Below are positions 9,344-50,693 of a stretch of 64,000 nt of DNA, piece after piece; position 1 is the first letter of the stretch, and each line of letters opens with the position of its first letter. Source of the stretch: Candidatus Latescibacterota bacterium (GTDB lineage: Bacteria > Latescibacterota > UBA2968 > UBA8231); NCBI GenBank assembly GCA_965248265.1, contig CBDFJF010000001.1, positions 1,408,001 through 1,472,000 on the forward strand, written 5' to 3'. The position numbers and the translations under genes are program-made. A model generated the notes under the pieces. It did no database searches. It was not told where the DNA came from and saw only the letters and a list, made by a program, of their open reading frames with translations.

Positions 9344-9371
9344 ACTCTACTACCTCGTGCTAGTGACCGTG

Positions 9372-19758: not shown

Positions 19759-20493
19759 ATGATAAGGAACAAGATTCTCGAACGCATACGTGCGGGCGAG
19801 AAAGCGCTCGGCGTATTGATGATCGACCCGTCTGAGTTACTGGTGGAGCTGGCGGGCAGGATGGGGCTCGATTTCGTCATGTTCGACGGCCAGCACTGGC
19901 CGTTGACACCGCAGCGGGTGGGAACCCTGTGCGCGATCGCGGATGGCTTCGACATCACCCCGATCATGCGCGTGCCCGACCAGTCCGAGACCTCCATTCT
20001 CAGCTACCTCGACAAAGGCATACGCCTGATCATCGTGCCGAACCTGCGCACGAAGGAGGAGGCCCAGGTGCTGGTCAGGTACACGTTTTTCGCGCCCATC
20101 GGCGCGCGCAGCGCGACCAGCAAACGCACCGTGTTGGCTGAGGGCAAGGGTGGCCGGAGCGAACTCTACGAGCAGGCGAACGCCAACACCATGCTCGTCC
20201 CCCAGCTGGAACACATCGAGGCGCTGGAGAATGTGGAAGAGATACTCAGCGTGGACGGGATCGACTACTTCGAGCCCGGTTTCGAAGATCAGGCGCAGTC
20301 GATGGGATTGCCGGGGCAGGCCGGCAGCGCCGTAGTGCACGACGCCTGGAACCAGTGCACCCAGAAGGTGCGGGCCGCGGGCAAGCACCTCCTAGCCGAC
20401 CACATCGAGTTCGTCGACGCGTTCAACAGCGTTGTGAAAGACGCTCAGGCCTTGCTCGAAAAGCACGGGCGCAATTCGCAGCTCGCTTCCTGA
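19759..20493 (+). CDS. HpcH/HpaI aldolase family protein
   Basis: NKILERIRAG, GLDFVMFDGQH, LDKGIRLIIVP, PQLEHIEALENVEEILSVDGID. Confidence 0.85.
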   Translation: MIRNKILERIRAGEKALGVLMIDPSELLVELAGRMGLDFVMFDGQHWPLTPQRVGTLCAIADGFDITPIMRVPDQSETSILSYLDKGIRLIIVPNLRTKEEAQVLVRYTFFAPIGARSATSKRTVLAEGKGGRSELYEQANANTMLVPQLEHIEALENVEEILSVDGIDYFEPGFEDQAQSMGLPGQAGSAVVHDAWNQCTQKVRAAGKHLLADHIEFVDAFNSVVKDAQALLEKHGRNSQLAS

Positions 20494-20518
20494 GCCCCCG
20501 GGGAGTGGGGATTTTTTC

Positions 20519-20547
20519 TTGACATGCTGATTCATTGTATTGATAAT
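20519..20547 (+). promoter_or_regulatory. Sigma70-like promoter of the secreted-protein operon
   Basis: TTGACA (20519-20524)-17 nt-GATAAT (20542-20547) in an AT-rich intergenic stretch. Confidence 0.55.
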
Positions 20548-20649
20548 ATTGCTAACTGTGCCGTAATCAGTGGTGTGAGATAATGTTCAATGTACAATAA
20601 GTTGCTGTTTTACCAGCACTTATCACCAGAACCCGTAGGAGGATTCGGA

Positions 20650-21495
20650 ATGAAGAAGTTAGTTGCTTTATCAGCCATAGTCTGTCTCGCCGGCGCCAGT
20701 TTTGCCCACGAGCCGGCAAATGAGGAATTCTTGGTGTATCAGTTTGCTGACGGGAGCACCCCAACCGCAGACGGGCTTGATGACGATTGGGATGGTGTCC
20801 CGGATTCGTACACTATCGGCATCGACAAACTCTACGACCCGTCCCAGTATCAGGAGGCCGACCGCGGCGGGAGCGACATCAGCGACATGAATATCACGCA
20901 CCGGGTCGGGTGGAACGAGACCGACAACAGGCTCTACGTCGTCACCACGGTGTTCGACGATATCCACGATCGGACCGGTGAGGGGTGCTTCTGCACTGAT
21001 GACTCCTATGAGCTCGAAGTGAACATGGACCACTCTGCCCATGCAGATGAAAACCCAGAGGACTTCGTCAGCAGGATCGCCTATAAATACGCTGTTCCGC
21101 CCGTTGACGGCGCGTACGCTTTCTCGCGCCCCGTCGCCGCGGTAGCTGATGAGTGGCTCTTTCCCGGCAGTGAGTGGCTCGACTTTGGGTGGAGCTTCAC
21201 CGGGGCAGAGTTCGGGGAGAGCACCTACACCTACGAGCAGTCCATCCTTCCCATCGAGAACTTTGCATGGGATGGTAGTGAAGGATCAGCAGTAATTTGG
21301 GACCTGGAGGAAGGCGATCTCTTCCATCTCGCTATCGGTGTGGGCGATGTAGACGTTCCATCTGACGCTTACCATGGCTTCTGGAGCACATCGCCGACGG
21401 CCTGGACTACCGACTTCGTCCTGGACGAAATCGTTGACTCGCCGACTGCCGTCGAGAATGATACTTGGGCTCGCATCAAGGCTCAGTACAAGTAA
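20650..21495 (+). CDS. Secreted acidic CBM9/DOMON-like protein with C-terminal TWARIK motif
   Basis: AGGAGG RBS; signal peptide MKKLVALSAIVCLAGASFA; PTADGLDDDW, VGWNETDNRLYV, DDSYELEV; ends TAVENDTWARIKAQYK. Confidence 0.7.
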   Translation: MKKLVALSAIVCLAGASFAHEPANEEFLVYQFADGSTPTADGLDDDWDGVPDSYTIGIDKLYDPSQYQEADRGGSDISDMNITHRVGWNETDNRLYVVTTVFDDIHDRTGEGCFCTDDSYELEVNMDHSAHADENPEDFVSRIAYKYAVPPVDGAYAFSRPVAAVADEWLFPGSEWLDFGWSFTGAEFGESTYTYEQSILPIENFAWDGSEGSAVIWDLEEGDLFHLAIGVGDVDVPSDAYHGFWSTSPTAWTTDFVLDEIVDSPTAVENDTWARIKAQYK

Positions 21496-21542
21496 CTGCC
21501 TGACTGGTAGTTGCCTGACGAGGAGTTGCAGTGAGGAGTTAG

Positions 21543-21576
21543 AAACCCGTGTCCCACTCTGTGGGACACGGGTTTT
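21543..21576 (+). terminator. Intrinsic terminator-like hairpin
   Basis: AAACCCGTGTCCCAC-TCT-GTGGGACACGGGTTT perfect 15-bp inverted repeat followed by T-rich TATGTTTT. Confidence 0.8.
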
Positions 21577-21601
21577 ATGTTTTGCTGGCAGGAGGACGAC
21601 G

Positions 21602-23725
21602 GTGTCTCAAGCAGTTTTCTGGGTCGGTCTGGTAAGCCTGGCGTTGACCTCTTCGGCCATGGCTGCAAGGTCGGAATACGTCCTGTCCGGGGACAGCGGA
21701 ATCCCCGGCCGACAGCCCTGGCAGACAGCCCTGGCGGCAGACCCCGGCGTCTACGTCGTTTTCGACAACGACGGTCAGCTCATCGACTCCGTGCCCATTG
21801 CCCTGGCGCCCCGGGGGGCCGGCGCCGATACCCTCATCGATTACAGCGGCGGCACCCTCCAATCCGTGTGGATTGATCCCACCTGGAACCTGGCCCGGCG
21901 CCTCGAGCTGGCGGATGGACAAATCACCTCGAGCGAGCAGTATGGCTATCTGTACGCAGAGCTGGAAAGCATTGTCTGGTCCTTCGACGGCGACCCGAAG
22001 ACCGCCATGAACCGCAAGTTTGTTCAGGATCCCTTCGGGCTTCCAGGCATAGGCGCGGGGTGGCGGCAAAACATAATCGTCGACCTGGGAGCCGACTTCC
22101 CGATCAACCGGGTCCGGTTCTACCCCCGCCTGGGCCATGACGATGCCCGGATCATCGAGCAGATGGACGAGCCCAGACCGGATCCGGAAACATTCGGCAG
22201 CCTGAGCTTTTCTGAAAATTACCTCGAATGGTACGAGCTCAGCGTTGCCGAAAATGCCAGGCCGTTCTCCCCAGATGCCACCCCCGAAAACTTTGCGCCG
22301 GGCACGCGCTGGTTCAAGGACGTCAAGGCCTGGGGGGCAGCCCTCGACCCGTGGTTCACCAGCCTCAAACTGACCACCGAAAATCTGGACGTGGTAGTCG
22401 ATCACCACTTCCCGCTGCGCCACGAGCGCTACGTAGCCCTGCGTCCCATCAAACCACTGCGTAATTGGGAAGTCGCCGAGATGGAAGTCTACGGAGAGGG
22501 CTACACAAAGAAAGGGGTGTTCCTCACCAATATCCTGGACTTCGGGCAGCCAGTCAGTTGGGGCAAGATCCGTTGGGCGGGCGAGATCCCTCCTGGCACC
22601 AGGGTGACTATCAGAACCCGCACGGGCAATGATCCGCACCCGACCCTTTACTGGCAGCCGGACCGTATCTCCGGTGAGCTGAAGTCGATCACCCGTGAGG
22701 AGTGGTCACGAATTCGCGGAAACCTTCGTCTGGCCCCCACCTACGACTGGAAAAACTGGAGCTTCTGGTCGCCACCCTACGATTTCGAATCCGGCCTGCG
22801 CGATCCGGCTGCTCCGGCCGCTTCGTGGGAGGATGGTACGTCCCTGCAATCGCCCAGCCCCAGCCGCTACCTCCAGCTCGAGATCATACTCTGGTCAACG
22901 CGCAACGCCACGCCTCGCCTGGACGCTCTGTGGCTCCAGTTCTCTCAATCTCCCGCCGCCTCCGAGCTGGTTGGGGAAATCTGGCCGATCGAAGTGGATT
23001 CTTTCGAGCCGCGCAACTTCACCTACACAGTCCGTCCGGATTTTATCGAGGGCGATATCGGGTTCGACCGCCTCGAGATCCTCACTTATACCACGGTAGA
23101 AGAGGTCCGCTCAGTCAAGGTAGACTCCCGGGAGATCGATCTGACCGATACGAATTATACCCCCGAGATACTCGACGACCGAATCATCGTGAAGCTCGAC
23201 AGAAAGCTACAGGATCCGACCGATGACCGCCTCAAGCAGGTGGAGGTCAATTTCGACGTCGCCGTGCTGCGCTTTGGCGCCGACTTCAAGGGGTGGGTAT
23301 TCAACAGCGACGATCCAGATCGCCTGAAGCAGCAGGTTCAGCCCGGCAACGCCACCTTCCGCTTTGCCGGAGACGTGCTGTCCGTGCGCACTGCGGTGGG
23401 GGGAGATCTGCTCGTCTTCACAGAGACTGCTCCCAATCCCTTTTCCCCCAATGGAGACGGGATCAACGACGAGATGTCCTTGTCCTTCAAGGTGCGAGAG
23501 GTGGCGCTGCGTCGATCCATTCAGGTGGAGATCTACGATCTGGCCGGTAACAACGTCCGCACCCTGACAAACATAGACGCCGTAACGGGTGCGTACTCTT
23601 TTACCTGGGACGGGGTCGATGACGGCGGTGTCAGAGTTTCCCCCGGTCTTTACCTCTACCGTATCAATCTGGAATCTGACGAGAACAACGAAGAGAAACT
23701 GGGCAGTATAGCCGTGGTCTATTGA
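21602..23725 (+). CDS. Large secreted protein with discoidin-like domain and C-terminal FlgD-Ig/CHU_C-like domain
   Basis: AGGAGG RBS + GTG 21602; signal peptide; VDLGADFPINRVRFYPR, EVAEMEVYG, RTRTG, WSFWS, PNPFSPNGDGINDE..IYDLAG..WDGVD..PGLY. Confidence 0.8.
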   Translation: MSQAVFWVGLVSLALTSSAMAARSEYVLSGDSGIPGRQPWQTALAADPGVYVVFDNDGQLIDSVPIALAPRGAGADTLIDYSGGTLQSVWIDPTWNLARRLELADGQITSSEQYGYLYAELESIVWSFDGDPKTAMNRKFVQDPFGLPGIGAGWRQNIIVDLGADFPINRVRFYPRLGHDDARIIEQMDEPRPDPETFGSLSFSENYLEWYELSVAENARPFSPDATPENFAPGTRWFKDVKAWGAALDPWFTSLKLTTENLDVVVDHHFPLRHERYVALRPIKPLRNWEVAEMEVYGEGYTKKGVFLTNILDFGQPVSWGKIRWAGEIPPGTRVTIRTRTGNDPHPTLYWQPDRISGELKSITREEWSRIRGNLRLAPTYDWKNWSFWSPPYDFESGLRDPAAPAASWEDGTSLQSPSPSRYLQLEIILWSTRNATPRLDALWLQFSQSPAASELVGEIWPIEVDSFEPRNFTYTVRPDFIEGDIGFDRLEILTYTTVEEVRSVKVDSREIDLTDTNYTPEILDDRIIVKLDRKLQDPTDDRLKQVEVNFDVAVLRFGADFKGWVFNSDDPDRLKQQVQPGNATFRFAGDVLSVRTAVGGDLLVFTETAPNPFSPNGDGINDEMSLSFKVREVALRRSIQVEIYDLAGNNVRTLTNIDAVTGAYSFTWDGVDDGGVRVSPGLYLYRINLESDENNEEKLGSIAVVY

Positions 23726-23727
23726 GT

Positions 23728-25797
23728 ATGGCCCGCCGCAACCTCTCGCTTGTGTACGGCTGGCTCGCGACCGTGTGTATGCCATATTCGGCCGCCGCGC
23801 TGGAAACGCTAACTATCGGCAACGATGCCCGGATCGATTGGGACGGGTCGGGCTCGCGCTTCACGACCATCGATCCGGAGTACCGCGCCCTGAATCCCAA
23901 CGAAATCCTCACCGGCAACCTGCCGGGCGCTCTGATCTACTTCGAGCACCCTGATTTTCCGGGCAGCCTCATTCCCAGGCAGCTCGAGGAGGGCGAGAAC
24001 GTAGCCGCCCAAACCATAGCGCGAGGCGGCAACATCGAGGCTCCATCGGTACTCGATGTCGCCGACGCAGCCCTCCAGACTGCCCTACAGGAACTGCTCA
24101 CCGACGACAATGGTGGCCAGCTCCTGGCCTTTGAGAGAAAGAATGTCAACGCCCGGGGCGCACTGATCATAGGCGATCTGGGGGGCCGCTTCGGGGTCAA
24201 CCGGATCCGCTTCTACCCTCGCAACTCGGGAGTCATTGACTCGACCGTAAAGCGTTCTCCCTCAACCCCTTTTCATCAGGACTATATCAGGGGTTTCGAA
24301 CTCTTCGTCAATGATGGGCTCAACCTGACCCAAGACGGTTTCCCCGTCTGGGATCTTCTGTCGGAAAACAAAGACAACACCGACCCGGTGGTCGAGGTGA
24401 TTCTCGACCCGCCTCAGTATATCCAGTCCTTCCGGTTGAAGTCGACCTCGTCGGTCGATTTCGAGATCGACGAGATCGAGGTTTTCGGCACTGGTTTTGT
24501 GCCCACCGCCCGCTACCTTTCCGATGTATTCGACCTGGGCCTGGCCGCGTGGGGCAACATCCGCTGGACCGAACGAGTCACGGGCGATCCGTCCCTGACT
24601 CGTCTGCTGATCTCTACCCGGACTGGCAGCGATGCAACACAGTTCGTGTACACGCGCAAGCTGGCCGACAAAGAGGATGCTCCGGAAGTTTCGACGTCCC
24701 TGCGCAACCGCGGCCAGCCGATGACCCAGGAGGAATATGACGATCTACCCGAACGTGATGCCGCGGGCCTGGAATGGGAAGCTGGTTCGGTCAGGGACGA
24801 TCTGCAGAACTGGAGCCCCTGGAGCACAGCCTATCCGCCCGAGGGGGGTACGCCAGACGGCACCCCGATCCTATCGCCGGGACCCCGGCGCTACATACAG
24901 TTTCAGGTACAGGCTTTGAGTGACGACCTGGCATCTGCCCGCCTTCTGGAGGACGTCTCCTTAGAGTATCTGGTGCCGCCCCTGGCCGATCAGTTCGAAG
25001 CCGAGATATTTCCGCGCGAAGTACCGGCCTCCACCATCACGACCTTCACCTATGCCGTGCGACCCACCATGGGGACCGACGGCTTACTCGGTTTCGACGC
25101 CTTTGAGATTTCAACGCCCCTGCGGGTGGAGGGTGTGGACCGCATCGAAATCCTGAATCCCGATGGATCCCTGGCGGACGCACATGACTTTACCGCGGAA
25201 GATCCCGCCGCTGACAGCCCCTTCGGGATAACCGCCATCGAGGACGATCGCTTCACCGTCCACTTCCCGCTCATTCATGAAGATCAAAGCCTGCTCAAGA
25301 TCACCTTCCGTGCCGCCGTACTCGTCTACAGCACCAGTTTTAATGGCCGAGCCGCCCTCTCCGCAGAGCAGGGGGCTTTCCAGGCTACTGTCCCGGGAAA
25401 TGCCGCCAACTTGGGCGAAACCGACGAGCCTACGCAGTCTGGGAATACGGTCTTCAGCCCTTCTGTCCTCAAAGGTCGGCTGATCGATGCGCTGGAGACG
25501 GTTCCGAATATCATTACCCCGAACGGGGACGACATCAACGATCGGGTTTCCATTGCCTACAACGTTCTCGCCCTGACCAAGGCGGGCAGAGTGACGGTGC
25601 GGATCTACGATCTGTCCGGTCGGCTCGTCCACACGTTGCAAGATGAGAACCTGCGCAGTGGCCGCTACTTCGACGAGTGGAACGGACGCGACGCCGAGGG
25701 GAAGCTTGCTCTTCCAGGAATCTATTTGCTCTCGGTCTCGGTAGATGGAGACAACCGCGACGGTGCGCTGATAAAGCCCCTATCGGTGATCTACTGA
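23728..25797 (+). CDS. Large secreted protein with discoidin-like domain and C-terminal FlgD-Ig/CHU_C-like domain
   Basis: Signal peptide; DLGGRFGVNRIRFYPR, EIDEIEVFG, STRTG, WSPWS, PNIITPNGDDIND..IYDLSG..WNGRD..PGIY. Confidence 0.8.
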   Translation: MARRNLSLVYGWLATVCMPYSAAALETLTIGNDARIDWDGSGSRFTTIDPEYRALNPNEILTGNLPGALIYFEHPDFPGSLIPRQLEEGENVAAQTIARGGNIEAPSVLDVADAALQTALQELLTDDNGGQLLAFERKNVNARGALIIGDLGGRFGVNRIRFYPRNSGVIDSTVKRSPSTPFHQDYIRGFELFVNDGLNLTQDGFPVWDLLSENKDNTDPVVEVILDPPQYIQSFRLKSTSSVDFEIDEIEVFGTGFVPTARYLSDVFDLGLAAWGNIRWTERVTGDPSLTRLLISTRTGSDATQFVYTRKLADKEDAPEVSTSLRNRGQPMTQEEYDDLPERDAAGLEWEAGSVRDDLQNWSPWSTAYPPEGGTPDGTPILSPGPRRYIQFQVQALSDDLASARLLEDVSLEYLVPPLADQFEAEIFPREVPASTITTFTYAVRPTMGTDGLLGFDAFEISTPLRVEGVDRIEILNPDGSLADAHDFTAEDPAADSPFGITAIEDDRFTVHFPLIHEDQSLLKITFRAAVLVYSTSFNGRAALSAEQGAFQATVPGNAANLGETDEPTQSGNTVFSPSVLKGRLIDALETVPNIITPNGDDINDRVSIAYNVLALTKAGRVTVRIYDLSGRLVHTLQDENLRSGRYFDEWNGRDAEGKLALPGIYLLSVSVDGDNRDGALIKPLSVIY

Positions 25798-27986
25798 CCG
25801 CCCTTTTCCATCATCGTTTCCATTATCTTGCCGGCCCGCTCCTGTGCAATCTGCTGCATCCGGTGCCTGCGGGCCGCGCGCTGATGGCTCTCAAACGCCG
25901 CCCTAGCCTGGTCCTTTTGCCCGGTCTTGAGATAGAGTTTTCCCAGCTCCTGGTGGACCTGGTAATCATCCGGAGCCAGACTGAGAATCGCCGAAAAGTG
26001 CTCGATGGCCGCCCCATATTGCCCCCTTCCCGCCTCCAACCTGGCCATGCTCCGCAACGCCGGTATAGACTGGGAATCCGCTACCAGCGCTGCTTTCAGG
26101 TAGCGCTCGGCCTCGGCTTCGTTACCTCCGCCCTCAACGAGCAGATCGGCCAGCTGGCACAACCCCTCGACATGATCGGGTTGCTGTTCGACCAACGTTC
26201 TGTACTCCCGTAGGGCCTCGGCATCATTCCCGTGAGCTTGATAGAGCTGGGCAAGCTGATGCCGCACCAGCAGGGAGTCCGGCTTGAGTTCCAGAACCCT
26301 GCGGTAGGCTGCTTCGGCTTTAGTGGGAGCATCACTCATCAGATAGGCATAGGCGAGACGTCCGTGCAGCGCCGCCCAGTCGCCGCGCCGCACAACAAGG
26401 TCCTCATAGAAATCGATGGCCCGCCGGTATTCGGTCTTCTTCAGGAACAGATCCGCCACAACCATGCTCACATCATCTCGATCCGGATGGTACTTCAGTA
26501 GCTGCCGACCGGCCGCAATGGCATCGTCATCCTGCCGCCGCGCCGCGTACATGCCGGTTAGCGCCATCAGCGCCTCCTCGTGGGCGGGATCGATCTTGAC
26601 GGCGCGCCGGTATTGGGCGAGCGCGTTGGCCTCCATCCCCCTCTCCTGGAAAGCAACGGCCATCCAGTAGTGTTGGTACGCATCGCCTGCTGAGTTCATG
26701 TCTCCCACCCCCCGGTTTGTCCCGAACAAGAGTAGAAGCAGGAGCACTCCCGCAAGCGCCAGCCGGGTACCGCGCTGACGAAAAAGGATCACGAGCCCGT
26801 GCGCGGCGAACAGCAGGAGGACCGGCACCACCGGCAGCCGATAGCGTGCGTTGACGAAAAACAGTATCACCGAGAAGGAGTACGTCGCACTGAAGAGCAG
26901 TAACAGAGCCCCGGCCGGACTTCGCCGCAAGGGCCCCACCAGGCAAGCACCCAGACCGAACAGGGCGAGGGGGGCAATCAAGCCAAAGGGAAAGGCCAGG
27001 CCGTACTTCCACAGCAATCCCTGCAGCAAGGAGGAGTCCTTACGGGCGTAGTACGGATCCAGGTTGTGGAGTATCTCGTCGCCGCGCCAGAACAGACGAG
27101 CCTTGTGCAGCAGCAAGCCGACATACCCCACTGGATCGGATGAGATGTAGGACCAGGACGAGCGGCCAGTGATGTCCGCATCGCTTTCGGGGCGATTGAC
27201 CAGCTCGTGCCATTCCCGACCCGGTCTGAAATCGATGCCGGCATCGGACGAGACCAGCACCCATTCACCGCCCACGATGCGGTTGCGCAGGGTCACCGGC
27301 GCCACCACCAGAGCGACTCCCAGGCAAAAGGCGGCCACTTGCACCAGGCGTCGGCGGCTCCCCGAATCCGCTGTCGGCAGAAAACGGAGAGCCCACAGGA
27401 GGACAACCGGGGCGAACAGGAATACATTCGCAACCAGCAGTCCCGAGCAGGCCAGCAGAAGGCCGGCCAGCAACCAACGGACTGCGCCGGGGCCTCGGGC
27501 CGCCCACAGCAAGGTGAGCAGCAACACTACATTGAGGCACACTGCCGGACCGACGGGCAGCAGCTCTCCCTCAAAATAGATGAAGGGGCCGTAGATCGCG
27601 GCCGTACAGGCCGCCAGCCAGCCTGTGGCCGGGGAGGAGAATGTCCTGTTTCCCAACCAGAAGAGCGACACACAGGTGATGGCACCCAGGACGGCCTGCA
27701 CGAAGCGCGGCAGGTAATAATCTTCGCCAAAGAGGGTGAAGAGCAGGCCGAGAAAGTAGGGGTACAGCGGCGGCGGCCAGAAGGGCTCCCCCGAATCACC
27801 TGCCCGAATTCCGCTCGCCAGACGCAGTCCCTCTTCCACGTAGGTCCTGGCATCGACCACCGGGGTGTCGAACAGAAGACTTTCAGACGTCTGAAGCAAA
27901 TAGAACAGCCGGATCGTCAGGGCGAGCCCGCCCACCAGCGCCAGCCCCGCCCCTGTGCTGCGCCATCGTATACTGCCGTCGGTCAA
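25791..27986 (-). CDS. GT-C (GT39-like) membrane glycosyltransferase with C-terminal TPRs
   Basis: PVVDARTY, FWPPPLYPYFL, APVTLRN, RYRLPV, then about 8 TPRs; TTG start overlaps upstream stop (TTGA). Confidence 0.8.
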   Translation of the reverse strand: MTDGSIRWRSTGAGLALVGGLALTIRLFYLLQTSESLLFDTPVVDARTYVEEGLRLASGIRAGDSGEPFWPPPLYPYFLGLLFTLFGEDYYLPRFVQAVLGAITCVSLFWLGNRTFSSPATGWLAACTAAIYGPFIYFEGELLPVGPAVCLNVVLLLTLLWAARGPGAVRWLLAGLLLACSGLLVANVFLFAPVVLLWALRFLPTADSGSRRRLVQVAAFCLGVALVVAPVTLRNRIVGGEWVLVSSDAGIDFRPGREWHELVNRPESDADITGRSSWSYISSDPVGYVGLLLHKARLFWRGDEILHNLDPYYARKDSSLLQGLLWKYGLAFPFGLIAPLALFGLGACLVGPLRRSPAGALLLLFSATYSFSVILFFVNARYRLPVVPVLLLFAAHGLVILFRQRGTRLALAGVLLLLLLFGTNRGVGDMNSAGDAYQHYWMAVAFQERGMEANALAQYRRAVKIDPAHEEALMALTGMYAARRQDDDAIAAGRQLLKYHPDRDDVSMVVADLFLKKTEYRRAIDFYEDLVVRRGDWAALHGRLAYAYLMSDAPTKAEAAYRRVLELKPDSLLVRHQLAQLYQAHGNDAEALREYRTLVEQQPDHVEGLCQLADLLVEGGGNEAEAERYLKAALVADSQSIPALRSMARLEAGRGQYGAAIEHFSAILSLAPDDYQVHQELGKLYLKTGQKDQARAAFESHQRAARRHRMQQIAQERAGKIMETMMEKGGQ

Positions 27987-30664
27987 TTGCCCAGGCCGGC
28001 GTACATGGTAATGAATCCCTCGGTGGTGGTATCGGAGTCCCGCTCGTTGAAATCTCTACGGTCTATCTTCATGCCTATCTGGGTCGTCAGCTCATAGCCC
28101 AGGTATGCGCTGACATTGGCAAATTGCACAGCCACCGCCTGGCCATTGAAATCGTTTGCGTCTTCACGGAAGTCGTTGGCCACGGTGTATTCGATCCCGG
28201 CTTGCACCGTGGTGCTGTTGAGCACGGGAAAGCTCAGCAGAAATCCGAAAATCTCCGTCAAGACCCGCTCCTTTTCCGTGGAGAGCAATCCTCTCGATTG
28301 CCAGCGCCACTCGCTCTTCCACCTCGGTTCCAGGGTGAGATTCCCGATCGGGTAGCGGTAGCTGGCCTTGTTGATGAGGCCGAAGAAAAAATCGGTGGCC
28401 CGCGCCAGGCCGAGGACTTCCCGCGTTTCCCTGTCCTTGCGCTGATGGTAGATGTCGTACTTCAGATGGTTGGCAATTTCCAGCATTCCCGGGCTGTAAT
28501 CATGGCCGAGCCAGAGCGAATTGATCCACGTATCGCGGGCGATCAGGGGATCCTCAACCTTCCTCTGCTGTCCGTCCTTCACGGTCACATCCGGAAACCA
28601 CTGGAGCAGGTCGTTGGGAATATCGTCTTGCGCCCGTTTGACCATCTCCATCATGCGAAATCGGCCCAATGTCGGTGTGTCCTGGTCTGCAGTGAAAAGA
28701 GCATAGGCCGTGTGGTTCTTCTGGTTGGAGGAGATCAGATCTTCGCGCAGATAGCCTACCGTAACCCGGGTTTGGGGGGTCAGGTGATAACCCACGTAGG
28801 CGTTGAATCCGCGGTGATCCTTCGCGTAGGGGTAGTCCGGCTCCTCGTCGTTTTCGAACCGGTCCACCCATTGGTTGTTGTTCATGTCGACACCGAACAG
28901 TTGTTCGGGACGATCGACGTTGTGCCTCAGAAAGGCCTCTTCGTAATCCGGGGTATCATTGGTGCGAAAGGTGTTATCATTCTGGTTGAAGTCGGGGACG
29001 AAGTCATTGTTCTCGTCCCACCCGGGAAATACCGTGCGGTCCCCCGGGCGCCAGTCTGCCCGGATTGTATCGGGAGCGCGGTCCTGGTCGTCGTTGTCTT
29101 CAACCAGCTCTAAGACATGCTGGCGTTCGTCTTCATAGTCGATGGATCCATCTGAATGCGTAACAAAGGTCCGGGTGGTGTAGAGCGGATCCATGCTGTA
29201 GGCCTCGCCGAAGAAGAACCAGGGGCCGGCGACCTTGCTGAGATTCATCATCCAGGCCGGTGCCGTCCGGCGCCCGGAGACGCCCGAGGAAGTCGAGTGC
29301 GACTTGCGGGTGATATTGGGGTACTGGCGATAGGTCAGACTCAGATCATACTCGCCGTAGAAATTGAAGCCGAGCACATTGTTCATTTCAACGGTGCCAC
29401 CGACGATCTGGTTGGCCGTGGGCAGGCCGTATTCAAACCTGAGCACCCGCAAATTGGTGTTGTCCTGTACATTGCCCTCGGCACGGGCGATCAGCAGCGG
29501 CACCGATCGCCCCGAGTCGTTAGTCTGGCGGTCGGAGCTCATCCAGACCTGGTAATCGTTGCCGATCGTCATGGCGAATTCAACCTTCTCGATTTCTTCC
29601 TTGGCTCCGCTGGAACGATTCACGAACGCGGGAGAGTCGAAATCGAAGAGGATGCGGATCTCTTCCGTGCCATCGGCCGAAAGAAATCCCTCCTGCACGA
29701 ACCCCCCCTGGATGAGCGGCTCGAAGCGGATGTCCCTTCCCTTGTCGGTCTCGCCATTGGTGTAGGTGATGAAGATGTCCAGGGCGTCCGGGAAGAAGGC
29801 GGCCCCGCCCTCCCCGTCTTCCGGGGAATCGTCCCTGAGCAGGATTTCGATAATGGAGACAGTCGAGTTCTGGTCGATGGTCAGAGCCCCCGCTACGGGG
29901 TTTCCCTTGAACCCGCTGACCAGGGTGTTCGACTGGTGGGTGTTTACGAAGTGGAGCCCGACGGTTGTGAAGTCCCCCACCTGAGCCGTGGCGCGTCCCC
30001 CCAGCAAGGTGGTGAGGTTGGTCCTGAGCAATTCCTGGTCGCGCGTGGTGGTACCCCCGGGACTGCTGATGCGCGAGTAGATCAACGTCCCCTGGTACTT
30101 ATCCATGGCGAAGTCGAACTGGGTTCCATCCCAGCGCGGCTTCGTGAAGGTCATGGGCGTCAGGGTTGTGCGGAGCGCGTTCGAGATGGTCAGGGCGTAG
30201 TGGTACTGACCTTTCTGATCGGAAGCAATAGCCACTCCCGAGAACCATTTGTCAAATTTTTCCGTCTTGGTCAGGGAACTGCCAAACTGACGAGGTTGGG
30301 TCTGGGTGTTGTCAAAGATCAACCAACCGCGAGTGACGAAATTTCCGAACAGGTCGTAGAAGTAGTCTCCTTCCAGGGAGGTGTCGACGTAGCGCTGGTA
30401 TCGGTTTCTGGCGTAGTTGCTATACTCCCATTGCCTCCACTTGTACTCATTGTAGAGTTCCTGTGGCACGTACCACTTCTTCACCGCCGGATCCAGGGCA
30501 CCGAACAAAACGCCCGGTCCGTACGGAGCAAAACTGACCCTTCCACCCCGCTGAGTGCCGAGGCGGGTTCCGTAATCCTGGGCGGCAACCCGGTCGACGA
30601 CCCCTGCACCCCCAAGACACGCGACACAAGCGGCGAGCAAGACAAACCCGTTTCTCGCTTTCAT
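27983..30664 (-). CDS. Large secreted/outer-membrane hypothetical protein (893 aa)
   Basis: Signal peptide then QDYGTRLG; acidic DxDD/DxNxD repeats (DNDDQDRAPD, DENNDFVPDFNQNDN, DMNNNQWVD); alternating amphipathic strands near the C-terminus ending FITMYAGLGN. Confidence 0.7.
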   Translation of the reverse strand: MKARNGFVLLAACVACLGGAGVVDRVAAQDYGTRLGTQRGGRVSFAPYGPGVLFGALDPAVKKWYVPQELYNEYKWRQWEYSNYARNRYQRYVDTSLEGDYFYDLFGNFVTRGWLIFDNTQTQPRQFGSSLTKTEKFDKWFSGVAIASDQKGQYHYALTISNALRTTLTPMTFTKPRWDGTQFDFAMDKYQGTLIYSRISSPGGTTTRDQELLRTNLTTLLGGRATAQVGDFTTVGLHFVNTHQSNTLVSGFKGNPVAGALTIDQNSTVSIIEILLRDDSPEDGEGGAAFFPDALDIFITYTNGETDKGRDIRFEPLIQGGFVQEGFLSADGTEEIRILFDFDSPAFVNRSSGAKEEIEKVEFAMTIGNDYQVWMSSDRQTNDSGRSVPLLIARAEGNVQDNTNLRVLRFEYGLPTANQIVGGTVEMNNVLGFNFYGEYDLSLTYRQYPNITRKSHSTSSGVSGRRTAPAWMMNLSKVAGPWFFFGEAYSMDPLYTTRTFVTHSDGSIDYEDERQHVLELVEDNDDQDRAPDTIRADWRPGDRTVFPGWDENNDFVPDFNQNDNTFRTNDTPDYEEAFLRHNVDRPEQLFGVDMNNNQWVDRFENDEEPDYPYAKDHRGFNAYVGYHLTPQTRVTVGYLREDLISSNQKNHTAYALFTADQDTPTLGRFRMMEMVKRAQDDIPNDLLQWFPDVTVKDGQQRKVEDPLIARDTWINSLWLGHDYSPGMLEIANHLKYDIYHQRKDRETREVLGLARATDFFFGLINKASYRYPIGNLTLEPRWKSEWRWQSRGLLSTEKERVLTEIFGFLLSFPVLNSTTVQAGIEYTVANDFREDANDFNGQAVAVQFANVSAYLGYELTTQIGMKIDRRDFNERDSDTTTEGFITMYAGLGN

Positions 30665-30707
30665 GATCCCTCACTTTGTACGACCTGCCACCCGGTCTGA
30701 TGGATAT

Positions 30708-33700
30708 TCAGTAGGCTACGGCCACGATTCGGGACAAGCTCAAATCATCTGCATCTGCATCCATGTGGAGCTGGCAGATATACAGTCCGGGCGGGACCTT
30801 CAGCCCGGACTGGTCGACCCCAGACCAACGCAGCGAGTGCGCGCCCCCGCGCACCAGGCTCGATCCTTCCCACACTCGGCGACCGTTCAGATCGTAGATC
30901 CGCAACCGCACCTGTCGGTCTGCTGTCACCTGGAACACCGAGAACTGGATGGTCAGTTCATCGTTGATGCCGTCGCCGTTGGGGGTGAAGGGATTGGGCG
31001 TCAACACCACGTCGTCGAGCACCTTGCCCCCCACGGGCACGCTGAGGGACAGGTCCTGTCCCTCGGCCAAGGCGGTGGCATTGCCGCCGTCTACCTGCTG
31101 CCACAGTGGTTCGCCCGCCGGCGTGAACTGGTCGGACTTGCGCACCTGCGCCCGCACGGTCGTTCCATTCAGAAACACCGTCGCCGCCACGCGCACGTGC
31201 ACCAGGCGGCCTTCTCCCCGGGTGGTGCCCCGCTGTGAGCGACTCAATCGGTTGTAATCCGCCTGGGTCAGTGAGTCACCCTGAACGGTGAAGGGGAATT
31301 CGGCTCCTGCGCCCAACAGCTTGCGGAAGTAGCGGATGGGGCCCTGCTCCTCGGGGGCCAGTTCGTCGTAGGCAAACTGATCGTCAACCTCGTCCAGGCG
31401 CACCTCACCAGCAGTGTCCGTGATCTGTCGGAAAAAGAGCGTCTGTCCGCGCTCATTATCGGACAAAAGCCCATAGGCTGCTTCAGACAACACCTCGCCG
31501 GCGTGGTCGACGACGACCTCGTCGCCATCGCCGGAAACGCGGTAGTAGCGTTTGGGCACCAGGTCGGCCTCAACGCTGTGCACCAGCTCCGGAATGCGAA
31601 ACATCACGGTGCCACCGCTACTCTCCAACAACTCGAGGGTATCGCCGGCCGCGCTGACAAAACCGCCGTCTATGGGTTCAAAGACCTGATCAGGCTGCTG
31701 CTGCGATAACTCGGCTTCTGTGCCGGTGCGCACCCCCACCAGACTCAGATCCAACTCGGCCGGTCCCTGCAGGAATACCTCGTCGAAGCCGGGGGTCCGA
31801 GAGGCAAAGGGAGCTTCGACAAAGGTCGAATGCAAATAGATATCAAAGGTGTCCCGCAATCCGGCTATGGCTTGCTGCGGCCAGATCTCGCCGATGAGGC
31901 GGCGGGCGACCGGATCGAACATGTCAACTTCGATCGAGCTCAGCGCCGCGGCCTGCTGGCGGTCCCGCGTGACGAATGTGGCCTGGATCTGCATAAACTG
32001 ACGTAGGCTGGGCGAGGTTACGTGATCGCCCTGCTGGTATGTGCGACTCCACGCGCTCCAGCCACTGCCCACGGCAAAGGATGTATCGATGGGGCCTTTG
32101 AACTTGTCGCGCAGATTATCCCAGTCTTCAAAGGTCTCCTTCTCGTTGCCCGAAGAGTCTAGGTAGCGGATGTTTTCCACCCGCAGATCGCCGGTGCGGG
32201 TACGGATTTCTATTTCGGTGCCGGGCGGTTGCTCGTCGGGACCGGGACTCCAGCGGATGGCGCCCAGGTTGCGCGGTTCGGGCATGAGGATGATGTCCGA
32301 GGTCATGCTTGCCTCGGCCACGTAGCCGGCCGAATACAACAAGATCTCACCAAGTTCGAAACCGTAGCCGCCGCTCCGGAGGTTGGTAGTTAGATTTCTC
32401 ATCTCCAGGTAGCGCACCTTGAGCGGCGGCTCGTAGATGTCGGAGATGAAGGCGAACTGGTTGATCAAGTTGTCCTCCCGTTCCGAGGGACTGACATTGC
32501 GCCACTTGAATGCTCCCGTTGCATCCCGTGTCCCGTCCGAGCCGCGCAGGATATACCCTTCTATATACGTACCGTCTTTTTTACTGACGCCACTGGCCGA
32601 TGCAACGCGCATGTTGTCCAGCCACATCAGCGCCCCCAGATCTACCGTCATTACCCCCCGCGTATTGAAGGGAGACCAAACCAGGAACCTGAAGCTGGTG
32701 CCAAAGTCGGCGTCGAAACCGGCTCCGCCCTTGTAGGGGCCGGTCACGTCCACGCTACCCCCTCTACCCAACACACCCGGTGAGAAGTTGTCGCCCCAGC
32801 CCCATACCTCCACCTCGCTCAGCCGGGGCCGCTCGCGCACATAATGCTCCCGCTTGCCCTGACGCTCCGGACCCAGACTCTCGTAAATCTCCCGTGGCAC
32901 CGGTTCCTCGAATCCGGCCTCGTCCCGGATGTAGTAGACGATTTCGCCTCGTTCCCCCACTGGCAGCTCCTCCCATACCTCCGGCGTCACCTGACGCCCC
33001 CGAAATCGCTTGCTGTCCGTCACCAACACCCGAATCGTCTGCACCATCCGCCCCGTCCATGACGGGTCCGTCCCTGGCTGGACAAACCGGGGCTCGCTTT
33101 GTGTAGTCAGTTCAAAAACCCGCTGCTCCGTGTTAGGCACAACCGTCCCGCCCACCACACTGAAGCTGCCCCACTGGTACTCGTTGGACGAGCCAAATTC
33201 GCTGTCCTTCGCCTCCAGCACCTGCTGCTCCGGCGAAGCCAGCACCCGAAACTGGCGAAAGGGATCCCCCAGGGCCTCATCGACGAAGTGCAGGACGACC
33301 TTCTCGACCACCACGACCCGGCCCAGGTCGATCTCCACCCACCAGTTGGCTGAAGTGTCCGCCAGATCCGGCTCCCAGTACGTCGACGGATCTCCATCGA
33401 AAATGTCGGCCGCGGAATCGATATTCGAACCGGCACGGCTGATGCCCGGACGTACGAAATAATCGTACTCGGGAAACATCTCTTTGGACTTGATCCCGAA
33501 GTTCTGCCGCGAGGTGCGCCCGGTGCGCTCGTTGCGCAGTGACAGTCTCACCTCATCGTCGCCCGTCATCGTCGTGTCCGTGATCGTGAACATCTCCCCG
33601 TCCAGGACGATCCGGGTGGCATTGCCTGGATAGCGGCCTAAGTCCGCATCCAGGTACTTGCCGATTCTCTCCTCCACCAGCTTGAGCTCCTCTGCCCTGG

Positions 33701-34013
33701 TACGAGCCAGCGTCCGTTCCACCGTGAGGATGGACCGGTCTGCCTTGCGGATCCTGGGCTTCTCGATGGGACGTACGAAGCTGTCCAGGTCCTCGGCCAG
33801 GATACTGTAGACGTGTCGGAAGAAGTGGGGTCGGATCTGCCCATCGACTAAATCAAGGATGTGTTCGGGCCGGCTCCATTGGGCCCAGTGCTCCGGGGTC
33901 TCGACAATGATCCGGGTGTCGGTGACGTCCGCCGACTGGGCCTGCGCCGGGGAAGCGCACAAACCCGCGATTGCCGCCCACACCAGTCCGATCCAAAGCC
34001 CTGCCCGCTGCAT
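30708..34013 (-). CDS. Large secreted protein with two discoidin-like units and C-terminal FlgD-Ig/CHU_C-like domain
   Basis: AAGGAGG RBS + ATG 34013; signal peptide; FDGDPSTYW..WVEIDLG, TVDLG, RTRTG, WSAWS, PNPFTPNGDGINDE..IYDLNG..PPGLY. Confidence 0.8.
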   Translation of the reverse strand: MQRAGLWIGLVWAAIAGLCASPAQAQSADVTDTRIIVETPEHWAQWSRPEHILDLVDGQIRPHFFRHVYSILAEDLDSFVRPIEKPRIRKADRSILTVERTLARTRAEELKLVEERIGKYLDADLGRYPGNATRIVLDGEMFTITDTTMTGDDEVRLSLRNERTGRTSRQNFGIKSKEMFPEYDYFVRPGISRAGSNIDSAADIFDGDPSTYWEPDLADTSANWWVEIDLGRVVVVEKVVLHFVDEALGDPFRQFRVLASPEQQVLEAKDSEFGSSNEYQWGSFSVVGGTVVPNTEQRVFELTTQSEPRFVQPGTDPSWTGRMVQTIRVLVTDSKRFRGRQVTPEVWEELPVGERGEIVYYIRDEAGFEEPVPREIYESLGPERQGKREHYVRERPRLSEVEVWGWGDNFSPGVLGRGGSVDVTGPYKGGAGFDADFGTSFRFLVWSPFNTRGVMTVDLGALMWLDNMRVASASGVSKKDGTYIEGYILRGSDGTRDATGAFKWRNVSPSEREDNLINQFAFISDIYEPPLKVRYLEMRNLTTNLRSGGYGFELGEILLYSAGYVAEASMTSDIILMPEPRNLGAIRWSPGPDEQPPGTEIEIRTRTGDLRVENIRYLDSSGNEKETFEDWDNLRDKFKGPIDTSFAVGSGWSAWSRTYQQGDHVTSPSLRQFMQIQATFVTRDRQQAAALSSIEVDMFDPVARRLIGEIWPQQAIAGLRDTFDIYLHSTFVEAPFASRTPGFDEVFLQGPAELDLSLVGVRTGTEAELSQQQPDQVFEPIDGGFVSAAGDTLELLESSGGTVMFRIPELVHSVEADLVPKRYYRVSGDGDEVVVDHAGEVLSEAAYGLLSDNERGQTLFFRQITDTAGEVRLDEVDDQFAYDELAPEEQGPIRYFRKLLGAGAEFPFTVQGDSLTQADYNRLSRSQRGTTRGEGRLVHVRVAATVFLNGTTVRAQVRKSDQFTPAGEPLWQQVDGGNATALAEGQDLSLSVPVGGKVLDDVVLTPNPFTPNGDGINDELTIQFSVFQVTADRQVRLRIYDLNGRRVWEGSSLVRGGAHSLRWSGVDQSGLKVPPGLYICQLHMDADADDLSLSRIVAVAY

Positions 34014-34189
34014 GTGGTCCTCCTTGGACATCATGTTGCACCTCTCCATCTCTTCAGAGGGCAGGCTGCTCCTTCCCGTTGCCGAGCGCGGCGAACGACC
34101 GACCATCTGGCCCTTCTCTGCCGACAAAACGGCGGACACCAGTTGCGTTACCCGTATTTTGTCAGTGGAGTACATACAAGGACTACAAT

Positions 34190-34219
34190 ACAATAGGAAA
34201 AGACAGAATAGCGTGTCAA
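34190..34219 (-). promoter_or_regulatory. Sigma70-like promoter for the minus-strand operon
   Basis: TTGACA (34219-34214)-18 nt-TATTGT (34195-34190) in an AT-rich divergent intergenic region. Confidence 0.4.
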
Positions 34220-34389
34220 CGATAGTTTCCGGCTCGAGAAGATATCATAACATTCTTATTTTTACGTAGTTATGCGCTGCAATTTGGACGATACGCCATC
34301 GCGGATTGCATTGACGGTTTCCATCCATCTGACTACGCTTCGCGCCCGTTCCCAGGGCCCCCGACCCGGAGACCCCGGTCTGAACGCGA

Positions 34390-36345
34390 ATGAGTGAGTC
34401 TTCCCCCCTCCAACCTACCCTTCGCGCACTGCTGATCGGCGCTGTGGGAGCGGCCGCCATCGGCGGTGGGGTGCCTTACTGTCATATGGTGCTCCACGGC
34501 TCCGTCCTCGCCTCCTATTTCAACACCCCCGCCGCCATCATCCTGTTCTTCTTCCTGGCGCTGTTTTTCAACACCTTCCTGGGGTTGCTGAGACGTTCGT
34601 GGATGCTGAACCGGGCCGAACTGGCTCTCGTCTACATCATGTGGATCGTCGCCACTGCCATTCCCGCAAAGGGCTTCACGGCCTTCCTGCTCCCCGACAT
34701 CACCAGCGTCGTCTACTACGCCACGCCCGAAAACGGTTGGCGCGAGCAGTTGCTGCCGCACATTCCGCAGTGGATCATGCCGTTCCGGCAGTTTGCCGAT
34801 GTCCAGGATTTCTACGAGGGCGCGCCTCTGGGGCAGGCCATACCGTGGGGCCGATGGATTCCATCGTTGATCTACTGGCTGTCCTTCATCACCGCCGTGT
34901 ACCTGGCCATGATTTCCATCACCGTCATCCTGCGCCGGCAGTGGGTCGAGCGCGAGCGGCTGGTTTATCCCCTGGTACAATTGCCCATCTCGATGATCCA
35001 CAACGAAGATGGTCGTCCATCGATCATCAGCCCCCTGTTCAAGAGCCCGGTGATGTGGATCGGCTTCGCCGTTCCCGCAATCCTTCAGACCCTCACAGGT
35101 CTCCACCACTACTACCCGAGTATCCCGGCATTTTCTTTTTACGGCCTCTCGGTTCCGCTCTTCCGCGACTCCGTGCACGTGCCCCTGAACCTGAGCTTCC
35201 AGATGCTCGGGTTCTCCTATTTCATCAGCCGTGAGATCGCCTTCGGCCTCTGTTTCTTCTACCTGCTCAACACCATCGAGCAGGGTGTCCTCAATGTGCT
35301 CGGCGTGCAGGAATTCGACTCGCTCCTGGCTGGCTACAGCGCCTACACCGGCCCCATTGTCGTGCACCAGGGATTCGGTGCCATCATCATGCTGGTCCTG
35401 TTCGGTCTGTGGATGGCCCGCAGCCATCTGCGCCAAGTTTTCACTAAAGCTTTCGGTCGGGGGCCGGAAGTAAATCAAATAGACGATAGTGACGAGATCC
35501 TCTCCTACCGGGCGGCAGTCTTGCTGCTTCTGGGCAGCCTCCTCTTCGTCGGCGTCTGGTTGTGGCAGTCGGGCCTGCCGGGTTGGATCACGCCGATTTA
35601 CCTGTTTTTCGCTTTCGTCCTCTTCATCGGCATCACCCGAGTCGTCGCCGAAGGTGGGCTGGCCTTCATCTTCCCCCCCATGATCGCCTCCGATTTCGTC
35701 ACGGCGGGATTCGGCACGAGGGCTCTTGGGGAGTCCGGTATCATGGCCCTGGCTTTCACCTACATCTGGGCCAGCGATATACTGACCTTCGTCATGGCAT
35801 CCTCGGCCAATGCCCTGAAGCTGGCCGCAGAGACTATAAAAAAGGGCGTGCGGTTGGTTTTCTGGGCCATGCTTGTGTCGATTATCGTCACCCTGTGCAG
35901 TTCGGTGTGGGCGATCATCGAGGTGAGTTACCACTACGGCGGCATCAACGCGGACGTCTTTTTCCTGGGGTCAGCCCAGATGCCGTTCAATGTTGCCGCG
36001 GCCCGCCTGGGGTCGATCGAAGGCCCACACTGGCAGAACTGGGTCTATACCGGCATCGGCGCCACCGTCATGGGCTTACTGATGCTGGCCCGGCAACGCT
36101 TCTCGTGGTGGCCCATTCACCCGCTGGGTTTTCCAACATCCGCCGTTTTCGGCACCATGTTCTTCAGCGTCTTCCTGGCCTGGCTCCTCAAGAGTATCGT
36201 GATCAGGTACGGTGGACCCCAACTCTACCTGCGCAGCCGCCCCTTCTTCCTGGGGCTGATCCTGGGCCAGTTCGTCACCGCCGGCATCTGGTACGGGATT
36301 GACTACATAGTGGGCGGGAGTCACAACCAGGTGATGACGTTCTGA
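34390..36345 (+). CDS. DUF6785/DUF6784-type polytopic membrane protein (putative peptide/oligosaccharide transporter)
   Basis: YYATPENGW, RRQWVERERLVYPL, TRVVAEGG, WWPIHPLG, RYGG..Y..SRPFFLGLILG. Confidence 0.8.
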   Translation: MSESSPLQPTLRALLIGAVGAAAIGGGVPYCHMVLHGSVLASYFNTPAAIILFFFLALFFNTFLGLLRRSWMLNRAELALVYIMWIVATAIPAKGFTAFLLPDITSVVYYATPENGWREQLLPHIPQWIMPFRQFADVQDFYEGAPLGQAIPWGRWIPSLIYWLSFITAVYLAMISITVILRRQWVERERLVYPLVQLPISMIHNEDGRPSIISPLFKSPVMWIGFAVPAILQTLTGLHHYYPSIPAFSFYGLSVPLFRDSVHVPLNLSFQMLGFSYFISREIAFGLCFFYLLNTIEQGVLNVLGVQEFDSLLAGYSAYTGPIVVHQGFGAIIMLVLFGLWMARSHLRQVFTKAFGRGPEVNQIDDSDEILSYRAAVLLLLGSLLFVGVWLWQSGLPGWITPIYLFFAFVLFIGITRVVAEGGLAFIFPPMIASDFVTAGFGTRALGESGIMALAFTYIWASDILTFVMASSANALKLAAETIKKGVRLVFWAMLVSIIVTLCSSVWAIIEVSYHYGGINADVFFLGSAQMPFNVAAARLGSIEGPHWQNWVYTGIGATVMGLLMLARQRFSWWPIHPLGFPTSAVFGTMFFSVFLAWLLKSIVIRYGGPQLYLRSRPFFLGLILGQFVTAGIWYGIDYIVGGSHNQVMTF

Positions 36346-36379
36346 TGCCGCCGCAACCTCAACCGATCAGGTGATGCTC

Positions 36380-50665: not shown

Positions 50666-50693
50666 GGTTTCACCTTTCTCCGCAGACGGTTCA

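Follow-up and report, generated by a model that had tools for sequence, protein, structure and literature searches.

A conserved, many-times-duplicated envelope locus of Latescibacterota that pairs CHU_C-tailed secreted proteins with a predicted outer-membrane β-barrel

The DNA analyzed here is a 64,000-nucleotide stretch (the window) from a Candidatus Latescibacterota bacterium (assembly GCA_965248265.1, contig CBDFJF010000001.1, positions 1,408,001 to 1,472,000). Between positions 20650 and 36345, it carries two converging operons made of seven genes, A to G, which encode three secreted proteins with a CHU_C-type C-terminal tail (B, C, and F), a large protein modeled as an outer-membrane β-barrel (E), a membrane protein with tetratricopeptide repeats (TPRs) (D), a further secreted protein (A), and a putative inner-membrane transporter (G). 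An earlier note, made from the letters alone, had singled out this region as a candidate envelope system. We find that it is one copy of a conserved envelope locus, which is duplicated many times and largely confined to Latescibacterota.

Layout of the locus and its recurrence

The genes form two opposing units, A-B-C and F-E-D, with G diverging from F (Table 1). As the earlier note described, the two operons converge with a 7-bp overlap at their stop codons, TGA for C (25795-25797) and TAG on the minus strand for D (25791-25793). Within the second unit, the start of D overlaps the end of E by 4 bp.

The same families and adjacencies recur across most of the related loci that we collected, so the co-occurrence on which the earlier note depended is borne out. 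Scanning a species-level genome set with an alignment of E gave at least 599 pattern matches, at least 515 of them confirmed by tblastn, and 76 distinct loci, all chosen through E, were kept with 10-kb flanks. Their taxon labels are Latescibacterota (58 loci), Gemmatimonad (14), Bryobacterales (1), and Woeseia (1), and one 7.3-Mb chromosome carries at least seven of the 76 loci, with nine E-family genes. When the window proteins were searched by tblastn, E was found in all 76 loci, B, C, and F in 74 each, D in 73, A in 57, and G in 23. Five flanking window genes used as controls were found by the same search in none of the 76, and the conserved block is therefore bounded at A to G. A stricter labeling, based on the best phmmer label and on coverage rules that drop matches confined to the tail or to the TPRs, gave E in 76 loci, C in 65, F in 62, B in 60, D with its membrane part in 57, A in 56, and G in 18. 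Gene order is conserved as well: E has F directly upstream in 59 of the 76 loci and a D-type gene (TPR or GT-C/TPR, GT-C being the glycosyltransferase C fold) directly downstream in 53, and 46 contain exactly three B/C/F-type genes. Since contig ends interrupt at least a quarter of the loci, these counts are lower bounds. The gene set is kept through several rearranged architectures and down to an E identity of 53%.

Many of these loci contain two core parts that the window copy does not. The first is a protein of ~545 aa, encoded directly upstream of F in 54 of the 76 loci, which is a PPIC-type peptidyl-prolyl isomerase (PPIase) with two parvulin-type matches and an N terminus that, on inspection, looks like a lipoprotein signal. 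It was not found next to F in the window by tblastn with 40 PPIase queries, two of which (from L015 and L027) match window FG-GAP/ASPIC genes and the TPR gene at 7883-9343. The second is a full-length paralogue of E (E2), which sits between B and A in 32-34 loci; the second E has B directly upstream in 32 of the 76 loci and is succeeded by A in 34. In all, 36 of the 76 loci carry two or more E genes. The window has no E2, and its E is of the first type, with a mean identity of 65.6% to 25 E1 proteins versus 54.0% to 25 E2 proteins. Full copies most often read (G) PPIase F E D C B E2 A, and the window comes closest to the type seen in loci L001-L003, in which the A-B-C and (PPIase)-F-E-D blocks are arranged differently. 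As for G, which the earlier note counted as the inner-membrane transporter of the module, it does adjoin the locus, and in L040 it lies upstream of the PPIase gene in the same orientation (gaps of 75 and 13 bp), but its presence in only 18 (strict) to 23 (tblastn) of the 76 loci makes it an accessory rather than a core part.

Several variants were seen in passing. A TdeIII restriction enzyme and its methylase are inserted between C and B at L070:8308-10031, and a four-gene block occupies the same place in L031 (16593-20139) and in L062; of its four genes, three were scanned, two having no Pfam match and one weak matches below threshold. Proteins of ~820-1060 aa that each unite an MFS-like membrane region, a spermine/spermidine synthase domain, and TPRs adjoin the locus at L004:14879-18061 and in eight further loci. 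In the window, an FG-GAP/UnbV_ASPIC gene, a TPR gene, and a second FG-GAP/ASPIC gene lie at 6071-11300, 9 kb upstream of the locus; FG-GAP/ASPIC and TPR genes are found inside or beside 17 of the 76 loci and may be loosely linked accessories.

Sequence signals around the genes were sought by consensus scanning (Table 1). Across the region, six promoter-like sites were counted, against 5.4 +/- 1.8 in shuffled sequence, that is, no excess, and the two matches listed are thus suggestive only by their position. The match upstream of F favors a start of F at 34013 over one at 34193, with which the N terminus of the F family in a 28-sequence alignment agrees.

Table 1. Genes and sequence signals of the locus, in window coordinates
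Feature	Position	Strand	Description
Terminator-like hairpin	20482-20509		Belongs to the preceding aldolase gene
Promoter match upstream of A	20519-20547	+	Sigma-70-like, TTGACA-17-GATAAT, 11/12; consensus scan
A	20650-21495	+	281 aa; secreted, acidic (pI 4.05), weakly CBM9/DOMON-like
Terminator-like hairpin between A and B	21542-21576	+	Strong; 16-bp stem, 9 G-C pairs, T-run
B	21602-23725	+	707 aa; secreted multi-domain β-sandwich protein; C-terminal CHU_C/FlgD_ig (~604-707)
C	23728-25797	+	689 aa; paralogue of B, same architecture and tail
D	25791-27986	-	731 aa; polytopic N-terminal domain and C-terminal TPR domain (~420-715)
E	27983-30664	-	893 aa; acidic, signal peptide, modeled as a large outer-membrane β-barrel
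F	30708-34013	-	1101 aa; longer paralogue of B and C; F5/8 type C domain and CHU_C-type tail
Promoter match upstream of F	34190-34219	-	Sigma-70-like, TTGACA-18-TATTGT, 10/12; consensus scan
G	34390-36345	+	651 aa; polytopic inner-membrane DUF6785 + DUF6784 protein; divergent from F

Protein families encoded by the locus

Pairwise BLASTP shows that B, C, and F are true paralogues, as the earlier note had claimed. B matches C with an E-value of 4e-52 across ~600 residues, while F is matched by B at 3e-27 plus 7e-14 and by C at 1e-17 plus 2e-11, and the ordered motif series that the note had read in all three can be seen in consensus sequences of the family, drawn from 39 B/C-type and 28 F-type members. 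Their tails exceed the Pfam gathering score of 27 for CHU_C (PF13585), with 41.8 bits for B, 35.8 for C, and 36.7 for F; FlgD_ig is above threshold in B and C only. Among the B/C-type homologues, CHU_C is found in 37 of 39 and FlgD_ig in all 39. Residues 200-268 of F correspond to an F5/8 type C (discoidin) domain, which scores 34.5 bits with PF22633 (cut-off 27.8) and 29.4 with PF00754 (cut-off 28.2) and has weak counterparts in six of the 39 B/C-type proteins. The N termini of the three proteins are hydrophobic with Ala-x-Ala-type sites and are not lipoprotein-like; signal peptides and lipoboxes were assessed by eye throughout.

The AlphaFold 2 (AF2) model of B, of good quality (pLDDT 82.3, pTM 0.74), is all-β, with approximately five sandwich or jelly-roll domains, and neither the model nor a Foldseek search with it revealed a catalytic domain. 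Foldseek returned partial matches to galactose oxidase, α-2-macroglobulin, adhesins, C5a peptidase, and PorU, with query-normalized TM-scores of 0.10-0.16. When a B/C-family profile was searched against Protein Data Bank (PDB) sequences, the tail alone matched (FlgD, C5a peptidase, and the C-terminal domain of PorU). The names of homologues are all automatic, such as "hypothetical" or "gliding motility-associated C-terminal domain," and the members do not map to characterized cargo. None of the outcomes that the earlier note had named as refuting its idea was thus seen, whether for co-occurrence, for the barrel, or for known cargo. The last residue of each tail is an invariant Tyr that follows an alternating hydrophobic strand (..VAVAY, ..SVIY, and ..AVVY; last codons of B, C, and F at 23723-23725, 25795-25797, and 30708-30710). 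This ending resembles an outer-membrane β-signal; E itself, ending in ..YAGLGN, has no terminal aromatic residue.

E is an acidic protein, as noted previously (pI 4.88), and belongs to no Pfam or NCBIfam family, its best NCBIfam match being AcfA at a chance-level 0.0058. None of 27 E-family members matches a Pfam outer-membrane family at E <= 1, and an E-family profile found no matches among PDB sequences. Relatives are nevertheless abundant: 960 were recovered among 8000 candidates scored, and a second search yielded 730 clusters at 50% identity with E <= 0.001, 212 of them with E <= 1e-30. All of the named relatives are called "hypothetical," and the few that bear a taxon come from Latescibacteria or are labeled Gemmatimonadetes.

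The AF2 model of E, built on 27 sequences of at least 54% identity, is a ladder of long antiparallel β-hairpins spanning residues ~167-890, with at least ~22 strands and a β-sandwich inserted at ~271-377. Two segments are poorly modeled yet highly conserved, namely the N-terminal ~25-176 and an acidic Asp/Asn-rich stretch at ~521-615, the latter being called invariant. Outer-membrane barrels account for all 47 matches listed by a Foldseek search against the PDB (best E-value 2e-7), which include SlpA, MtrB, LptD, the ushers PapC and FimD, TonB-dependent receptors, and porins. The hairpin ladder and these matches agree with the β-barrel that the earlier note had inferred. On the basis of the model, the most fitting description of E is a large outer-membrane barrel whose sequence family is new and which we could assign to no known barrel class. 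A complex prediction in which residues 25-893 of E and the tail of F (985-1101) were entered as alignments gave a score of 0.00, with the mark at 0.32, and speaks neither for nor against binding.

D, which the earlier note took for a GT-C/TPR enzyme, has a C-terminal TPR domain that is solid in Pfam and an N-terminal membrane domain with approximately nine hydrophobic segments. Only the TPR half of that description stands firmly: the match of D to the GT-C family PMT_2 (PF13231) scores 24.7 bits, below the gathering score of 26.1, and that of the L040 orthologue 21.8. An alignment of 55 long D proteins shows no Asp or Glu at residues 30-60 that reaches 90% conservation; E304 is nearly invariant. 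Moreover, 18 D-type proteins of 300-380 aa among the 76 loci have no membrane domain and consist of TPRs only (the eight with printed matches align only to residues ~417-718 of D), which makes the TPR domain the constant feature of D. The eukaryotic TMTC1-4 and TMEM260 proteins are GT-C/TPR protein O-mannosyltransferases. D resembles them in the fusion of a polytopic GT-C-like domain to TPRs and in the presence of Ig-like or β-sandwich proteins as possible substrates, but it differs in its subthreshold PMT_2 score, in having no acidic residue of 90% conservation in the first loop, and in its 18 relatives without a membrane domain.

A, described as a secreted CBM9/DOMON-like protein, is weakly so. 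The protein itself has no Pfam match at E <= 1, and a family profile found no matches among PDB sequences, but 10 of 26 homologues weakly match CBM9_1 (PF06452; best E-value 0.0011), and a language-model search offers as leads clusters in which 13% (A's own cluster), 37%, and 100% of members carry CBM9_1, scoring 0.98, 0.96, and 0.93, respectively. His20 of A (20707-20709) follows the predicted Ala-x-Ala cleavage site and is invariant in 26 of 26 A-family proteins, so that mature A is predicted to begin with His; H106 is likewise invariant in the family. Copper "histidine brace" proteins characteristically start with His. We rejected A as a copper protein resembling lytic polysaccharide monooxygenases, which has no sequence support despite the invariant N-terminal His.

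G matches DUF6785 (420.4 bits, 1.1e-125) and DUF6784 (93.8 bits, 8.1e-27), and at this strength, it can hardly be called a divergent DUF6785-like transporter, as the earlier note had it. It has no matches among PDB sequences; in a language-model search, its nearest clusters are those of peptide/OPT transporters (0.79, a lead only).

The surroundings of the locus vary between copies. In the window, GH42, β-helix/GH2N, and aldolase genes flank it, and a Cupin_2 protein of 124 aa (3.9e-15) is encoded at 36371-36745 (+), on the strand of G and 26 bp downstream of it. Elsewhere, a scan of 76 neighbor proteins found heterogeneous flanks with housekeeping enzymes, ATP-binding cassette transporters, restriction systems, and a few sulfatase- or glycosidase-like genes. 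Farther out in the window lie a helix-turn-helix protein of the transposase kind (HTH_32/HTH_29; 1449-1985, +) near the window start, an acidic protein of 651 aa (17690-19645, +) with no Pfam or NCBIfam match at E <= 1 and no relative in the 76 loci, and a 1072-aa protein in which an ammonium transporter is fused to PAS, histidine kinase, and receiver domains (50694-53912, -) and which is followed by a separate response regulator (50207-50725).

Proposed surface display and competing explanations

Secreted proteins, a barrel, and a TPR protein encoded side by side recall a part of the Bacteroidota type IX secretion system (T9SS), in which cargo proteins carry type A or type B C-terminal domains (CTDs). 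According to PMC9143113, type B cargo binds to and is anchored by cognate PorP-like barrels of 14 strands, Flavobacterium johnsoniae has 12 type B cargo proteins against 10 of the PorP-like kind, porE-like genes adjoin six porP-like genes, and a PPI copurifies with SprB. In PMC12618676, type B substrates are described as often genetically linked to PorP/SprF-like shuttle genes, and five tail motifs as required for secretion.

The explanation that we favor, tentatively and at somewhat less than even probability, is that the locus is a surface-display module that would work like type B CTD cargo with its cognate PorP/SprF barrel and a PorE-like TPR partner. Its starting points are observed: the tailed proteins are paralogous and have the domains described above, E is predicted to be a barrel, and the genes present and their order are conserved. 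By analogy, F, C, and B would be exported by Sec, and their discoidin-type and Ig-like β-sandwich domains would be suited to binding glycans or other polymers, while the C-terminal CHU_C/FlgD-Ig domain would serve as a sorting and anchoring tag. The E barrel (and E2) would receive the tagged proteins in the outer membrane and hold them at the surface. The membrane-anchored periplasmic TPR domain of D and, where present, the PPIase might act as scaffold and chaperone, and the GT-C-like domain of D may glycosylate the cargo. What we infer in this scheme is which parts make physical contact, which way transport runs, what the ligand is, and whether a T9SS translocon is needed.

We favor surface display because the order of CHU_C-tailed protein, barrel, and TPR genes, its repetition, and the PPIase parallel Bacteroidota type B cargo. 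As in SprB-SprF and PG1035-PorP-PorE, a CHU_C-tailed gene lies directly upstream of a barrel gene, which is followed by a TPR gene; many sets are present per genome, and a PPIase is associated. Since the tail would be the anchor in such cargo, it would not be expected to be removed. There are also differences. The barrel here is unrelated in sequence and approximately three times larger than PorP/SprF (~300 aa, FadL-type), the TPR partner is either fused to a GT-C-like domain or a short TPR-only protein and lacks the WD40 and OmpA_C domains of PorE, and there is an extra CBM9-like protein. The pairing with a PorP-like barrel suggested in the earlier note survives in the position of a cargo gene beside a barrel gene; that E is PorP-like, by sequence or by size, does not.

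Several observations weigh against surface display. None of the 27 E-family members matches PorP/SprF (PF11751) in Pfam at E <= 1, and at ~890 aa with at least ~22 modeled strands, E far exceeds the 14-stranded PorP-like proteins (PMC9143113). The model on which the comparison rests is of moderate quality (pLDDT 62.5, pTM 0.60), and TM-scores to known barrels are low (0.10-0.27, query-normalized, over the 47 matches listed). E is conserved over its whole length, with a mean column identity of 62%, as would suit a component of a machine better than a simple anchor. Three cargo genes accompany one or two barrels, unlike the one-to-one pairs of Flavobacterium. The NCBIfam models of T9SS tails are not reached by the tails here, either for type B (TIGR04131, cut-off 35; 23.0, 21.7, and 17.0 bits) or for type A (TIGR04183, cut-off 23; 19.3 and 21.3 bits). 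No T9SS core gene (SprA/Sov, PorK/L/M/N, PorV) is present in the 64-kb window, and no T9SS core family was found among the 76 scanned neighbor proteins, a search that did not cover the remaining genome sequence. Finally, the loci were selected via E, so that B/C/F-type genes without E were not sampled, and many come from related genomes, so that gene order is shared in part through common descent.

Type A tails do occur near two of the related loci. Por_Secre_tail (cut-off 27) matches L026:723-2678 (-), a PAD_porph peptidylarginine deiminase of the Porphyromonas type, with 37.0 bits, and L018:3798-4406 (-), a small protein, with 29.1 bits, which hints that those genomes may use a type IX-like sorting signal.

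The best placed of the alternatives, which we nonetheless consider unlikely, is a self-contained export and assembly pathway without a T9SS, in which F, C, and B would cross the outer membrane through E (and E2) as their translocon, with the PPIase as periplasmic chaperone and D as an inner-membrane-anchored TPR adaptor. Such a pathway would resemble the chaperone-usher or Slam-type pathways, built from unrelated parts. In its size of ~890 aa, its conserved N-terminal region, and the β-sandwich inserted early in the barrel, E is usher-like, and PapC and FimD are among the Foldseek matches listed, with E-values from ~5e-6 (rank 9). The subunits of both systems are secreted and Ig-like, a periplasmic chaperone-type gene is present in the 54 PPIase-containing loci, and chaperone-usher loci likewise occur in many copies per genome. 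The unusually even conservation of E along its length and the absence of T9SS core genes from the sequences examined also suit this explanation. The resemblance does not extend to sequence, however, as none of the 27 E-family members matches Usher (PF00577), PapD, or DUF560/Slam at E <= 1, and with TM-scores of 0.16-0.24 to PapC and FimD, the likeness in fold is nonspecific. Moreover, the chaperone here is a parvulin-type PPIase lipoprotein rather than PapD-like, the window copy lacks it altogether, and the exported proteins are multi-domain proteins of 700-1100 aa, not pilins. With Slam, in which TPRs and a DUF560 barrel place β-rich proteins on the surface, the locus shares a TPR domain and a barrel, and D exceeds the TPR_Slam cut-off (45.5 versus 35.2 bits). 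This match is weak evidence because TPR models cross-match widely, and in contrast to Slam, the TPRs sit on a different polypeptide from the barrel, which is unrelated to that of Slam and far larger, and the cargo proteins, on inspection, are not lipoproteins. The tails also match CHU_C, a T9SS signal family, and the type A tails in the same genomes suggest that a T9SS is present there.

An uptake system analogous to SusCD, in which B, C, F, and A would bind a polymer, E would be the import channel, and G the inner-membrane transporter, seems doubtful to us and ranks next. It would account for the discoidin-type domains of F (and, weakly, of the six B/C-type proteins), for the CBM9 leads for A, and for the position of G, which adjoins the window locus and precedes the PPIase gene in related loci such as L040 and whose nearest clusters are those of peptide/OPT transporters. 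As in polysaccharide utilization loci (PULs) of the SusC/SusD type, the paralogous copies per genome are many, a large barrel accompanies surface proteins that may bind carbohydrate, a transporter is sometimes adjacent, and the window copy lies beside glycosidase and aldolase genes. Against this, neither E nor its 27 relatives match Plug or a TonB-dependent receptor, and the TonB-dependent receptors among the matches listed by Foldseek are generic barrel matches (TM-scores of 0.16-0.24). SusC/SusD systems further differ in having a plug and TonB box family, a SusD-like gene, and consistent enzyme genes. G is missing from most of the 76 loci, and B, C, F, and A are fairly evenly conserved, with no hypervariable binding domain. 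A PUL reading drawn from the glycosidase neighbors of the window copy is weakened by their occurrence in 0 of 76 loci and by the heterogeneous flanks elsewhere, where carbohydrate-active enzymes are few.

Improbable in our estimate is a further possibility, that E/E2 is the translocon of an undescribed, self-sufficient export and anchoring machine, in which the TPR protein, anchored in the inner membrane, would span the periplasm, the lipoprotein PPIase would be the chaperone, and the CHU_C-like tails with their invariant terminal Tyr would be the secretion signal, the whole unit having been duplicated many times in Latescibacterota to display different binding proteins. Least of all do we believe in a chance gathering of independent secreted proteins and a porin, for although the interactions within the locus are putative and the loci were sampled through E alone, this is contradicted by a gene set and adjacencies that recur in most of the 76 loci through rearrangements and at E identities down to 53%, by the 4-bp overlap of E and D, and by the unrelated neighbors of the window copy, which are never retained (0/76).

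Novelty and significance

Literature searches found no paper describing the locus, which agrees with the earlier note's statement that no characterized system has this composition. No literature was found that combines Latescibacter with type IX secretion or T9SS, and among the papers listed that combine it with gliding motility, none, judging from titles and abstracts, concerns this locus. The passages on outer membrane and secretion in the Latescibacteria genome paper (PMC4454575) do not mention it, and DUF6785 was not mentioned in the literature searched. Among the phyla of the Fibrobacterota-Chlorobiota-Bacteroidota (FCB) group, others are listed as possible T9SS holders in PMC11285876, the consulted part of which does not name Latescibacterota; in PMC7323717, the FCB phylum names searched for were not found. 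What is known is the logic of a cargo protein with a cognate barrel and a TPR partner; what is new is the barrel family.

Latescibacterota are widespread and uncultured, their envelope is little known, and this locus accounts for a large part of their genomes. Two of its core families, E and A, are unnamed in Pfam and NCBIfam despite the at least 515 confirmed matches in the species-level genome set. If the self-contained export pathway were correct, the locus would represent a new outer-membrane secretion route, and the self-sufficient E/E2 machine, if real, would be a secretion-system-like module outside the numbered types. If surface display through a barrel unrelated to PorP is the right explanation, the logic of tagged cargo, barrel, and TPR partner would be older or more flexible than the Bacteroidota examples suggest, and the locus would offer a concrete handle on how Latescibacterota attach to polymers or harvest them.

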